Shown here piece after piece: positions 45,877-53,861 of a DNA stretch of 64,000 bases. Source of the stretch: an uncultured Verrucomicrobiae bacterium (GTDB lineage Bacteria > Verrucomicrobiota > Verrucomicrobiia > Chthoniobacterales > Chthoniobacteraceae); contig CAVVUC010000002.1 of the NCBI GenBank assembly GCA_963751395.1, forward strand, positions 1,172,029 through 1,236,028, given 5' to 3'. The stretch's first letter is position 1; every line of letters starts with the position of its first letter. The position numbers were made by a program, and so were the translations under genes. The notes beneath the pieces are model-generated. The model saw only the letters and a program-made list of their open reading frames with translations. It had not been told where the DNA came from and did no database searches.

Positions 45877-48800
45877 CTATCCAGCAGCCGGCGAATGATG
45901 CGGCTCGACGACCGGTTCGCCAATCGCTTCTCCCAACTGAACGACGTTCACGTTGCGATGGCTCGGGAAGCCGGTGCCCGCGGGAATCAGGTGGCCCATG
46001 ATGACGTTCTCCTTGAAGCCGCGCAGGTGATCGACCTTGCCGAGCGTCGCCGCTTCGGTCAGGACGCGCGTCGTGTCCTGGAACGACGCCGCCGAGATGA
46101 AGCTGTCGGTTTCGAGCGAGGCCTTGGTGATGCCGAGCAGCACGGGCACGGCTTCGGCGGGCTTGCCGCCTTTCTCGACGACCGCCTTGTTTTCCTCCTC
46201 GAACGCGAGCTGGTCCACCTGGTCGCCCCAGAGGAGCGTCGGTGTCGCCGGGATCGGTGATCTTCACCTTGCGCAGCATCTGGCGGACGATGATCTCGAT
46301 GTGCTTGTCGTTGATCTCGACGCCCTGCAGGCGGTAGACTTCCTGCACTTCGTTGACGAGGTGCTCCTGCAGCTCCTGCGGTCCGCAGACCTCGAGGATT
46401 TCGTGCGGCACGACCGGGCCTTCGGTGAGCTGCTGGCCCTTCTTCACGAAGTCGCCCTTGAAGACGATGATGTGCTTGTTGAGCGGGATGAGATGTTCCT
46501 CTTCCGCGCCGGTCTCCGCGTCGCGTGACGATGACCTTGCGCTTGCCGCGAACGGTGCCGCCGATCTCGACGATGCCGTCGATCTTCGCGATCTCGGCGG
46601 CGTCCTTCGGACGGCGCGCTTCGAACAGCTCGGCCACGCGCGGCAGACCGCCGGTGATGTCCTTGGTCTTCGCAATCTTGCGCGGCGTCTTGGCCAGCAC
46701 GCGTGCCCGCCTGAACCTTCTTGCCCTCCTCGACGACGATGTGCGCGCCGGCCGGAATCGAGTAGCTCGCGAGCACCTCGTTGGTCTTGTCGTCCACGAT
46801 GACGATCTGCGGGTGCAGATCTTCCTTGTGCTCGATGACCACGGTGCCCATCACGCCGGTCGCTTCGTCCACTTCGCGTTTGATCGTGACGCCGGCGATC
46901 ATGTCGCGGAATTCCACCTTGCCGGTCTTTTCCGTGAGGATCGGCACGTTGTACGGATCCCATTGCACGAACGTCTCGCCCTTCTTCACATGGCCGCCGT
47001 CCTCGATCGAGATGACCGAGCCGATGACGATGGTGTAGCGCTCCAGTTCGCGGCCGTCCTTGCGTGAACGGTGATGCTGCCGTTCTTGTTCAGCACGACC
47101 CAGGTGCCTTCGAGCGTCTTCACCACGCGCAGATCGTTGAAGCGAATGTCGCCGTCGTTCTTGGCCTTGATGACCGGCTGCTTGAACGTCTGGCGCGCGG
47201 TGCCGCCGATGTGGAACGTACGCATCGTCAGCTGCGTGCCGGGTTCGCCGATCGACTGCGCGGCGATGATGCCGACCGCCTCGCCGAGCTTGACCATCTG
47301 GCCGGTCGCCAGGTTGCGGCCGTAGCACTTGGCGCAGACGCCGCGTCCGCGATTCGCAGGTGAGCACCGAGCGGATCTTGAGCTGCTCGACGCCGACCTT
47401 CTCGATCGCAGCCGCGGTCGGCTCGTCGATCAGCTGGTTCGCCTTGACGACCTTGGTTCCGGTGACCGGATCCTTGATCGTCTCGCAGCTCACGCGGCCG
47501 ATGATGCGCGTCTCGAGATCGACGACTTCCTCGTCGCCCTCGTAGATCGAGCTTGACGACGATGCCGTTGACCGTGCCGCAGTCCTCCTCGATGATGATC
47601 ACGTCCTGCGCCACATCGACGAGCTTGCGGGTGAGGTAGCCGGAGTCGGCCGTCTTCAGCGCGGTGTCGGCCAGACCCTTGCGGGCGCCGTGCGTGGAGA
47701 TGAAGTATTCCAGCACGCGTCAGGCCCTCGCGGAAGTTCGAGATGATCGGGCGCTCGATGATTTCGCCCGACGGCTTGGCCATCAGGCCGCGCATGCCGG
47801 CGAGCTGCTTGATCTGCTGGCGGTTGCCGCGCGCACCGGAGTCCACCATCATGAACACCGGGTTCAGTTCCTTGCGGCCCTCGTTGTGTTCGAGGGTGCG
47901 GAACATGACGTTCGAGATTTCCTCGCTCGCGTGGGTCCAGATGTCGATGATCTTGTTGTAGCGCTCGCCGTCGGTGATGATGCCGCTGCGGTACTGCTTC
48001 TCGACCTCGGCGATCTGCTTGTAAGCGCGTATCGAGCTCGGTCTGCTTCTCCTTCGGAATGATCATGTCCGACGATGCCGATCGAGATGCCGGCCTGGGT
48101 CGCCCACGTGAAGCCGAGTTCCTTGAGCTTGTCCAGCGACTCGACCGTGCCTGCCTGGCCGACCGCCTGATAGCAGCGCCAGATGATGTCGCTGAGCTGC
48201 TTCTTGCCGGCGGCCTTGTTGAAGAACCCGAGGTCCTGCGGCCAGATTTCGTTGAAGATCACGCGGCCGACAGTGGTCTCCATCACTCGCTTTTCCACAT
48301 CGCCGTAGATCGTTTTGCGCTTGCCCGCCTTGTCGTAATCGGGATTCAGGAAGCGGATCCGGTCGTGAATCTTGATCGTTCCCTCCGCCAACGCGAACTC
48401 CACGTCGCCGGCGGCATGAGAAGAACGGAAGGCGCTTGCCTTCGTCGCTGCGGCGAGGGTTCTGCGTGAGGTAATAGCACCCGAGCGCGATGTCCTGCGA
48501 CGGCGTGGTGATCGGCTTGCCGCTCGAGGGCGAGAAGATGTTGTTCGGCGCGAGCATGAGCATGCGCGCCTCCATCTGCGCCTCGACCGACAGCGGCACG
48601 TGCACGGCCATCTGGTCGCCGTCGAAGTCCGCGTTGTAAGCGGTGCAGACGAGCGGGATGGATGCGGATGGCCTCGCCCTCGATCAACTGCGGCTCGAAC
48701 GCCTGGATCGACAGACGGTGCAGCGTCGGCGCGCGGTTCAGCAGCACCGGGTGGCCCTTGCGTGACTTCTTCGAGAATGTCCCACACCTCGGGCGTCTGG

Positions 48801-50017
48801 CGCTCGATCATCTTCTTGGCGCTGCGCACGGTGTGGACGAAGCCGAGCTCCTTGAGACGGCGGATGATGAACGGCTCGAACAGCACGAGCGCCATCTTCT
48901 TCGGCAGACCGCACTGGTGGAGCTTGAGCTCCGGACCGATGACGATGACGGAACGGCCCGAGTAATCGACGCGCTTGCCGAGCAGGTTCTGGCGGAAACG
49001 GCCGCCCTTGCCCTTGAGCATGTCGCTCAGCGACTTGAGCGGGCGGTTGCCGGCGCCGGTGACGGCGCGGCCGTGGCGGCCGTTGTCGAACAGCGCATCC
49101 ACCGCTTCCTGCAGCATGCGCTTTTCGTTGCGGATGATGACATCCGGCGTCTTGAGCTGGAGCAGGTTCTTCAGACGGTTGTTGCGGTTGATGACGCGGC
49201 GATAGAGATCGTTCAGATCGGACGTCGCGAACCGTCCGCCTTCGAGCGGAACCAGCGGACGCAGGTCCGGCGGAATCACCGGCAGCACTTCGAGGACCAT
49301 CCACTCGGGACGCGTGTGCGAGTTGCGCGAAGCCCTGAACGAGCTTCAGGCGCTTGGCGAGCTTCTTGCGGGTCTGCTTGCTGCGCGTGTTGCTCCATCT
49401 GCCTCTTCGAGCTCCTTGTTGAGCTTCGCGAGGTCGATCTGCGCGAGCAGTTTCTTGATCGCTTCCGCGCCCATCCCGGCGACGAACGTCTCGCCGTATT
49501 GCTCCTGCGCTTCGCGGTATTCCATCTCGGTCAGAAGCTGGCATTGCGCTGCAGCGGCGTCTCGCCCGGATCGATGACGATGTAATCCTCGTAATAGATC
49601 ACGCGCTCGAGCTGGCGGCGCGTCATGTCGAGCATCAGGCCGATGCGGGAGGGCATGCACTTGAAGAACCAGATGTGCGAGACCGGCACGGCCAGCTCGA
49701 TGTGGCCCATGCGCTCGCGGCGCACGCGCGACAGCGTGACTTCGACGCCGCAGCGGTCGCAGATCACGCCCTTGTGCTTGATGCGCTTGTATTTGCCGCA
49801 GCAGCATTCCCAGTCCCGGGTCGGACCGAAAATGCGCTCGCAGAACAGGCCGCCCTTCTCGGGCTTGAACGTCCGGTAGTTGATCGTCTCCGGGTTCTTG
49901 ACTTCGCCCTTGCTCCAGGACCGGATGCGTCTCCGGCGAGGCAACGGTGATGCCGACTTGATCGAAGCCGACGCTGCGCTCTTCGCCGAAGATTTCGCGG
50001 ATGTTTGGATCAGTCAT
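45877..50017 (-). CDS. rpoC: DNA-directed RNA polymerase subunit beta' (heavily frameshifted; at least 10 frame changes)
   Basis: More than 12 overlapping minus-strand ORF fragments tile beta' in the correct order. The N-terminus is [29 protein letters not shown], then the zinc finger [23 protein letters not shown], then [39 protein letters not shown], then NADFDGD-region fragments ([18 protein letters not shown]; MAVHVPLS). The C-terminus is GHLIPAGTG at 45877. Confidence 0.85.
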
Positions 50018-53000: not shown

Positions 53001-53861
53001 GGATCCTTCTTGAGGGACTTGATGATCGTGTCATCGTCCTTCGTGTCGACGACTTTCACGCTTTTGACGCCGAGCGCGAGGATCTGGCGCACCGTGGCCT
53101 TGGTCAGCGGCTCGAAGGCGCGGGCAACTGTGATCTCGCCGTCGCGCACGTCGCTGATGAGCACTTTGCTGCTGATCTCCTCTTCCTCGAGTTTGTCACT
53201 GAGCGTCGAGGTCCTCGATGGTGTAGAACAGCTTGATGATCTCCTCGTCGGTGCCGTAGCCGAGCGCGCGCAGGAACGTGGTCGCAAGGAATTTCCGGCG
53301 GCGTTTGCGGCGGTCGAGATAGATGTAGAGCAGATCGTTGGTGTCGAACTGGACTTCGAGCCACGAGCCGCGGTCGGGAATGATGCGGAAGCTGTAGAGC
53401 ACTTGCCGTTGAGGTGGACGCTCGACTCGAAGCAGATGCCCGGCGAACGGTGCAGCTGGCGAGACGACGACGCGCTCGGCGCCGTTGATGACGAAGGTGC
53501 CCTGCGGCGTCATGAGCGGAATCTCGCCCATGTAAACCTTCTCCTCCTTGGTGCCCTTCTCTTCCTTGAGCTGGAAGGTGACATGAAGCGGCGCGCTGAA
53601 CGTCTGGCCCTCGCGCTGCGATTCCAGGGCGCTCAACTTCGGCTCGCCAATCTCGTAGGTGACGAAGTCCAGCGTGACTTTTTCGTCGTAGCTCGCGATC
53701 GGGAAGACTTCCTTGAACACGGCCTGCAGACCCGTTTCCTTGCGCTTGCCCGGCGGCACGTTCGATTGCAGAAACTCCACGTAGGAGTTGAGCTGAACTT
53801 CGATCAGGTTTGGCGGCTCCGCGGCTTCCTTCAGTTTACCGAAATTGATTCGCTCGGACAT
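50025..53861 (-). CDS. rpoB: DNA-directed RNA polymerase subunit beta (heavily frameshifted)
   Basis: N-terminus [32 protein letters not shown] (53861). Fragments include [15 protein letters not shown], the rifampicin-region stretch GPGGLTRERA-equivalents, [10 protein letters not shown] and [29 protein letters not shown]. The C-terminus is [32 protein letters not shown] (50025). One junction was checked by hand at 53400-53440: an extra c in tcgccagctg and a missing g in ggcaagtgctc. Confidence 0.85.

Follow-up and report, generated by a model that had tools for sequence, protein, structure and literature searches.

Introduction

Consensus indels that split a gene into several open reading frames (ORFs) are a recognised technical problem for metagenome-assembled genomes (MAGs), and the textbook frameshift errors of long-read data are linked to homopolymers and spread genome-wide (PMC9262707). 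Haplotype-collapsed ('squashed') consensus sequences and the bacterial pseudogenes of reductive decay are two further systems with which a gene carrying many frameshifts has to be compared. Here we make this comparison for rpoB and rpoC, the genes of the RNA polymerase beta and beta' subunits (together rpoBC), in a 64-kb stretch of a contig from a Verrucomicrobiota bacterium, the whole of which we call the window. Both genes are interrupted there by frameshifts, and we consider it very likely that these are not biology but an artefact of consensus calling from a mixture of two diverged lineages.

The locus resembles the long-read consensus errors in that genes are split by small indels and the underlying protein is intact, as is also the case in three public contigs (L001, L002 and L006, described below). 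It differs from them in that the events of the window lie off runs of 4 or more bases, coincide with differences between lineages and are about 30 times denser in the 8 kb of strongest conservation than elsewhere. With the haplotype-collapsed consensus it shares the site-by-site mosaic (TGC at serine, TTC at leucine) and the spurious indels at variant sites, the difference being that the second template seems here to be limited to segments of about 85-92% identity (rpoBC and, to a lesser degree, secA). A second template limited by identity fits reads of another species on conserved genes and not a genome-wide second haplotype. Bacterial pseudogenes, too, may carry several frameshifts per gene, but rpoBC of the window has no stops, no excess of replacements and indels at unconstrained codon positions, and the two genes are essential, single-copy and situated in their canonical operon. 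Our literature search returned general background only, and no paper describing this exact signature was found.

Frameshift events in rpoB and rpoC

The window has a G+C content of about 60%, and the closest public relatives of its bacterium are MAGs of Chthoniobacterales and Terrimicrobiaceae. On the minus strand the genes follow in the order rplA, rplJ, rplL, rpoB, rpoC, a cobalamin adenosyltransferase gene, rpsB and tsf (coordinates of rpoB and rpoC in Table 1), and rpoBC occupies the canonical rplL-rpoB-rpoC site. The ORF listing breaks rpoB and rpoC into overlapping pieces spread over the three frames of the minus strand, with no whole ORF for either, and in the frame plot of G+C per codon position the coding phase switches at intervals of a few hundred bases from 45.8 to 53.9 kb. 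A fragment of rpoB of 199 amino acids (aa), used as a protein query, retrieved RpoB fragments with the Pfam domain PF00562. As references we took the intact RpoB (1266 aa) and RpoC (1370 aa) of L003, a short-read MAG that is the closest GTDB representative; in tblastn both match the window in alternating frames, again in all three frames of the minus strand.

Alignment of these intact orthologues to the window by a frameshift-aware protein-to-DNA dynamic programme yielded 29 events, 13 in rpoB and 16 in rpoC (Table 1), which bears out the earlier note on this DNA, where both genes had been described as riddled with frameshifts and where such a listing, together with a test for homopolymers, had been proposed. 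Most of the events are +1 shifts (21), followed by -1 (5) and +2 (3), and each +2 resolves into two separate +1 shifts a few bases apart, giving about 27 extra and 5 missing bases. The DNA alignment by MAFFT with nine relatives places concordant single-base gaps private to the window, and in it the extra base can be any of the four. Neighbouring events are 29-614 bp apart, with a median of 246 bp. The junction that had previously been dissected by hand does contain the extra c and the missing g, but they were misplaced at 53400-53440: the former lies in 53453-53462 and the latter in 53397-53407.

The concentration of the events is pronounced and well beyond chance: rpoBC makes up 12.5% of the window and holds 29 of about 36 detectable events (binomial p = 2e-20). 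In rpoBC this corresponds to about 3.6 events per kb; for secA the value is about 1, for the remainder about 0.07 and for all DNA outside rpoBC together about 0.1. The count outside rpoBC is a lower bound, since close compensating pairs in genes without a reference escape detection. A codon-usage Viterbi model trained on intact long genes recovered 25 of the 29 shifts in rpoBC and called only 6-7 on the sense strand elsewhere (the antisense of GC-rich genes gives spurious shifts, and only sense-strand calls were counted). The proteins of relatives match tsf, rpsB, the adenosyltransferase gene, rplL, rplJ and rplA over their full length and in one frame each. According to Pfam, ftsK, the 1132-aa polysaccharide deacetylase-glycosyltransferase fusion, the 1190-aa restriction-modification enzyme, the S9 peptidase and about 30 other genes are complete, collinear and single-frame. 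Thus the flanking ribosomal protein and tsf genes and the long genes named in the earlier note are intact, as was stated there. The implication that the damage is exclusive to rpoBC did not hold, because secA, pfkB, oppC and a glycosyltransferase-like gene are broken as well.

Table 1. Affected genes, frameshift events and mosaic codons in the window (event rows in minus-strand order; inserted or doubled bases in square brackets, lost bases as hyphens)
Feature	Coordinates	Strand	Remarks
rpoB (RNA polymerase beta subunit)	50025..53861	-	13 frameshift events; corrected product 1267 aa; stop codon 50025-50027
rpoC (RNA polymerase beta' subunit)	45877..50017	-	16 frameshift events; corrected product 1374 aa
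Affected block	46240..53459	-	holds all 29 events
+1 TCG[C]CAG in TCGCCAGCTG	53453..53462	-	Ser TCG/TCC/AGC in relatives, both variants kept; the 'extra c' of the earlier note
-1 AA[-]GTG in GGCAAGTGCTC	53397..53407	-	Lys third base lost (AAG/AAA in relatives); the 'missing g' of the earlier note
+1 CTCGA[C]GCTC	53204..53210	-	GAC/GAG or CTC/CTG doubled
-1 CGG-CTG	52911..52917	-	Gly/Ala codon, third base lost
-1 AAGAA-TAC	52882..52888	-	Lys codon, third base lost
TGC (Cys) mosaic codon	52523..52525	-	Ser invariant in 27 relatives; QLSQFMDQ motif, rifampicin-resistance cluster I, here QLCQFMDQ
+1 GG[C][T]CTG	52446..52452	-	Gly GGC/GGT doubled
-1 CC-GAG	51832..51838	-	Pro codon, third base lost
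+1 TC[C][G]TCG	51234..51240	-	Ser TCC/TCG doubled
+1 TC[G][C]AAC	51104..51110	-	Ser TCG/TCC doubled
+1 AGC[G]AAG	50806..50812	-	Ser AGC x Ser TCG merge, both in relatives
TGC (Cys) mosaic codon	50660..50662	-	second invariant RpoB Ser, GVPSRMN, here GVPCRMN
+2 (two +1) AA[C][G]CAG, AT[C][T]CGC	50550..50567	-	AA[C][G]CA product also in L001 at the same site
+1 TA[T][C]GAC	50473..50479	-	Tyr TAT/TAC doubled
+1 TC[G][C]GAC	50226..50232	-	Ser TCG/TCC doubled
+1 AC[G][C]ATC	49924..49930	-	ACG x AGC merge, both in relatives
+2 CGC[AA]TGC	49536..49546	-	CGC x AAA codon merge, both in relatives
+2 (two +1) GC[A][G]ATG, G[A]GC	49386..49400	-	
+1 GC[G][C]AAC	49322..49328	-	Ala GCG/GCC doubled
+1 AC[G][C]AAG	48757..48763	-	Thr ACG/ACC doubled
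+1 CA[T][C]CCG	48654..48660	-	His CAT/CAC doubled
TTC (Phe), RpoC Leu532	48421..48423	-	Leu in 23/24 relatives, TTR and CTN both used; adjoins the 48416 event
+1 TC[A][T]GCC	48413..48419	-	variable segment, placement less certain
+1 ATC[G]TCG	48070..48076	-	
+1 GA[T][A]CGC or AC[G][C]GCT	48024..48030	-	
+1 AC[G][C]GTG	47714..47720	-	ACG x AGC merge, both in relatives
+1 AAG[C]TCG	47548..47554	-	AAG x CGC merge; identical product in L001, same codon
+1 TC[G][C]GGA	47343..47352	-	TCC/TCG, or TCC with TGC, all in relatives
-1 CAC-GCAAG	47059..47065	-	variable Asn/Asp/Ala codon, first base lost
+1 ACG[C]GTG	46698..46704	-	codon also broken in L001
+1 AC[G][C]GAC	46523..46529	-	
+1 AC[C][G]ACG	46237..46243	-	Thr ACC/ACG doubled
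secA	13369-16431	-	three ORFs; three +1: CT[C][T]GCC, GC[C][G]GAC (15.45-15.53 kb), GC[G][C]AAG (~14.69 kb)
pfkB (PfkB-family kinase)	18162-19191	+	one +1 near 18500, CC[C][G]AAC; Pfam positions 2-87 / 86-300 in two frames
oppC/dppC permease	34644-35667	-	one +1 near 34850, GA[A][G]TCG; true stop 34644-34646
Glycosyltransferase-like gene	29114-30285	-	one apparent event ~29870-29910; 153-aa N-terminal ORF and 253-aa C-terminal ORF

Intactness of the corrected genes

Once the indels are removed, both genes are those of healthy proteins. The corrected RpoB is collinear with RpoB of L003 from end to end, and the corrected RpoC spans residues 1-1370 of its counterpart and keeps the NADFDGDQM catalytic motif. 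Neither product contains an in-frame stop codon, and all hallmark motifs are kept. In an alignment with 24-27 intact relatives, private changes were found at 3 of 534 invariant columns in RpoB and at none of 544 in RpoC, which is within the range of healthy relatives.

These figures bear directly on the idea that rpoB and rpoC are genuine pseudogenes, inactivated by real indels and replaced by a functional copy elsewhere. The sequence as given indeed encodes neither protein, which speaks for such an idea. However, a decay that fixed 29 indels would leave many substitutions and stop codons, and here 29 frameshifts are accompanied by no in-frame stop, while amino-acid replacements at about 1080 invariant columns are not in excess. 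Because stops and replacement excess are both missing after removal of the indels, rpoBC is not a pair of decayed pseudogenes; the stops and the relaxed constraint that mark decay were not found. Furthermore, the indels avoid the constrained codon positions, unlike the indels of decay, and the locus is the canonical rplL-rpoB-rpoC site. We therefore regard genuine pseudogenes as highly improbable, and the judgement of the earlier note that essential genes such as these cannot truly be pseudogenes agrees with the corrected proteins. Similarly small is the chance that some living cell line really carries the indels in its DNA, in whatever form, be it as a very recently inactivated rpoBC beside a second functional operon or together with an unknown recoding system. 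The real rpoB and rpoC of the organism are almost certainly intact.

The relatives point the same way. Among the 31 GTDB relatives (L003-L033) rpoB and rpoC are single-frame wherever they are present in the locus, the exception being L006 with 2 shifts in rpoC, and the clade has ordinary rpoB and rpoC genes. One could still argue that real indels are bypassed in expression by programmed frameshifting, transcriptional slippage or RNA editing, for which the essentiality of the genes is the only argument. Against it stand about 32 sites of heterogeneous context with no shared slippery motif and no homopolymers, none of which is conserved as a shift in the 31 relatives, and the fact that all four bases occur as the extra base. 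The slippery motif and the conserved shift of programmed frameshifting are thus absent, the contexts being heterogeneous and the genes of L003-L033, except in L006, single ORFs. We find such a bypass hardly conceivable.

Nature of the indels and mosaic codons

The earlier note had taken the two changes of its junction for homopolymer length changes, and this is contradicted by the full list: all 29 events stand clear of runs of 4 or more bases, the longest run at any event is 3 bases, and all 12 runs of at least 4 bases in rpoBC are untouched. Homopolymer-linked sequencing error is rejected on the same observations. The extra base is found mostly at codon positions that vary among relatives, and the pattern is that of two alternative bases standing side by side, as in TC[G][C], GG[C][T], CA[T][C], TA[T][C], AC[G][C] and GC[G][C]. 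The deletions behave in the same manner, removing the third codon base in 4 of 5 cases and a variable first base in the remaining one.

We quantified this pattern by a synonymous-pair test, which an insertion passes if removal of either of two different bases restores the same protein and every residue is seen in relatives. As many as 19 of 21 single insertions pass, compared with 51% of random insertions simulated into the corrected genes (binomial p = 1.5e-4), and in the version of the test based on nucleotide alleles all 21 pass, against 67% expected (p = 2e-4). At several sites the product is a merge of two whole codons that both occur in relatives: TCG and AGC gave TCGC (53459) or AGCG (50809), ACG and AGC gave ACGC (49927, 47717), and AAG and CGC gave AAGC (47551).

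The mixture is visible in substitutions too. Two of the three private changes of RpoB are Ser to Cys, encoded by TGC, and both stand at serine columns where relatives use the AGC/AGT and the TCN codon families (there are 31 invariant serine columns of this kind). The T of TGC belongs to one serine family and the GC to the other. In RpoC a leucine codon for which relatives use both TTR and CTN reads TTC, and a similar Leu to Phe change is found in L001, a noisy public contig. Such TGC and TTC codons are the expected product of a site-by-site blend of two templates, and the cysteine in place of serine in the QLSQFMDQ motif is probably an artefact. The frequent order NCG followed by C led us to consider a systematic error tied to a methylation motif or k-mer; this was rejected, for the CGC motif arises through the event and is not there beforehand, and a context error would not stay within rpoBC.

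Conservation of the affected block and related public contigs

The sliding DNA identity to L001 is 0.85-0.92 over 46206-53688, falls to 0.76-0.79 at the gene ends and is 0.69-0.84 in the flanks. The 29 events are all confined to the block of 0.85-0.92 identity; the flanks have none. A large-scale chimera, in which the nearest relative would change along the region, was not seen, L001 being the closest throughout.

The same defect is present in the same genes of public contigs of related Verrucomicrobiota. L001 (ENA ERZ25039472, contig_97161) carries 44 events in rpoBC (4847-12821), L002 (JGI 3300041964) carries 24 (7980-15917), and the two rpoC events of L006, which belongs to a Verrucomicrobiae MAG, are at 13616 and 13794. 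The corrected rpoBC products of L001 and L002 contain at most one stop codon, in rpoC of L001, and 25 of 30 single insertions of L001 pass the synonymous-pair test. In both contigs rpsB is split too, and each has at least one further split gene (a RecQ-type helicase in L001, rplJ in L002). The window and L001 even share the product itself at RpoC codon 817 (GTCAAG[C]TCGATCTAC in both) and near RpoB codon 1097, and at RpoC codon 1099 both have a +1 in the context ACG[C]. L001 and L002 were found through the search with the 199-aa query, which yielded only RpoB fragments of at most 349 aa, a ceiling equal to the query length plus 150, although full-length RpoB proteins exist. A general statement that rpoB is fragmented in many assemblies of the clade was therefore rejected as selection bias, the GTDB relatives being intact.

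With these data one rival can be weighed, namely ordinary noise of a single template, in which the 8 kb would be covered by very few unpolished long reads, for example one or two that bridge a gap. Damage that consists nearly entirely of indels, is sharply localised and leaves a perfect corrected protein would suit this explanation, and the excess of insertions recalls raw single-molecule reads, which have an insertion bias. But random indels would not cluster at variable codon positions (19 of 21 against an expected fraction of 0.51), and noise offers no reason for merges of two codons or for TGC at serines of two codon families. Nor would it break identical sites in the independent contig L001. 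Homopolymers are not involved, and the boundaries of the noisy stretch track conservation and not an arbitrary interval. We consider single-template noise unlikely.

A probable consensus from two templates

The explanation that we favour is a mixed-template consensus. The earlier note had proposed a collapsed or chimeric consensus over a conserved region, of the kind produced in metagenome assembly, and the indels at variable sites, the mosaic codons and the restriction to a high-identity block support this proposal. What is found is what two templates would leave behind: both alleles kept or both dropped at sites that vary between lineages, mosaic codons, and confinement to segments of high identity.

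The course of events may be pictured as follows. In the stretches of strongest conservation, and chiefly in the 7.2-kb core of rpoB-rpoC, two lineages would have supplied the templates of the consensus: the organism of the contig and a relative living alongside it, with an identity of about 85-92% in this part. Where the templates disagree, a gap-tolerant alignment would write the mismatch as an insertion plus a deletion, most often at third codon positions and swapped dinucleotides (TCG/AGC, ACG/AGC); at the latter the aligner would favour such a pair over two mismatches. The consensus may then keep both bases (+1), keep neither (-1) or take neighbouring bases from different templates, giving a mosaic codon. 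Template alignment would be possible only in the high-identity block, and it is for this reason that the consensus would be contaminated there. Reads of the second lineage thus appear to have been recruited only where identity is high, in rpoBC and less so in secA, and we infer that the data and the software were of the long-read kind.

A second, diverged copy of rpoBC or a large duplicated segment in the same genome, collapsed or cross-polished, would give the same signature of mixed templates, and rpoB paralogues are known in a few actinomycetes. However, tblastn detected no second copy within the 64-kb window, relatives carry one rpoB and one rpoC per locus, and the events of the same kind in secA, pfkB and oppC point to a second genome and not to a second operon. 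A second copy is in our view very unlikely.

Several observations weigh against the mixed-template consensus or are at least not explained by it. We infer the presence of two templates from the consensus product alone. The excess at variable positions is clear but not overwhelming, given that about half of random insertions pass the test too. The strong bias to insertions, with about 27 single-base gains to 5 losses, and the preference for C after NCG (10 cases to 2) are not predicted in detail without knowledge of the software. The genes pfkB, oppC and the glycosyltransferase-like gene, with one event each, are not obviously highly conserved. The brokenness of L001 and L002 is a selected property, although the type of their errors was not selected. 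Finally, an independent assembly of the same species with intact genes was not found: look-ups for exact matches to the proteins of the two genes beside rpoBC gave no hit, the best hit of the genome scan has 95% aa identity, over a conserved RpoB fragment, and that of the metagenome scan for rpoB of the same species has 87%, over a variable fragment.

The locus holds no biological finding and the cause is technical, with practical consequences. As they stand, rpoB and rpoC of this contig are unfit for phylogeny, for marker-gene completeness and for resistance calling. A screen for resistance mutations could mis-score the two Ser to Cys changes of RpoB, both TGC codons being most likely mosaic. 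Since secA, pfkB, oppC and the glycosyltransferase-like gene are broken, gene calls of the source assembly need caution beyond rpoBC. It is of use that a mixed-template consensus can be recognised without reads, by doubled bases at variable positions, TGC at serines of two codon families and restriction to a high-identity block.

Other genes and surroundings

Outside rpoBC five events can be read base by base (three in secA and one each in pfkB and oppC), and all are doubled third-position bases, as in rpoBC. The density of events in secA, a conserved gene, is second only to that in rpoBC. The real C-terminus of oppC (SFLSFLGLG...DALDPR) lies in another frame, and because the true end of the gene is at its stop codon (Table 1), the 115 nt by which oppC seems to overlap the convergent aminotransferase gene are an artefact. 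An ORF for a Dabb (stress-responsive A/B barrel) domain at 16895-17122 (+) starts at profile position 29 of 96, with no N-terminus visible in the other frames; possibly this is a further frameshift, or the gene is truncated.

The genes rplK, nusG and secE are absent from the whole 64-kb window, and of the relatives in which rplK was found, at least 18 in number, most have it a short distance upstream of rplA. Upstream of rplA (about 56085-56300) the window has instead an unrelated plus-strand ORF at 56170-57738 with no Pfam match. The junction reflects either a true rearrangement or, the assembly being one that blends templates, a mis-join. ARAGORN found no transfer RNA (tRNA) or transfer-messenger RNA (tmRNA) genes in the 64 kb. 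The 1190-aa restriction-modification enzyme (36540-41124, minus strand) is a single-chain protein with Eco57I and MmeI-type methylase domains; it is intact, and so is the separate N6/N4 DNA methylase gene that adjoins it.

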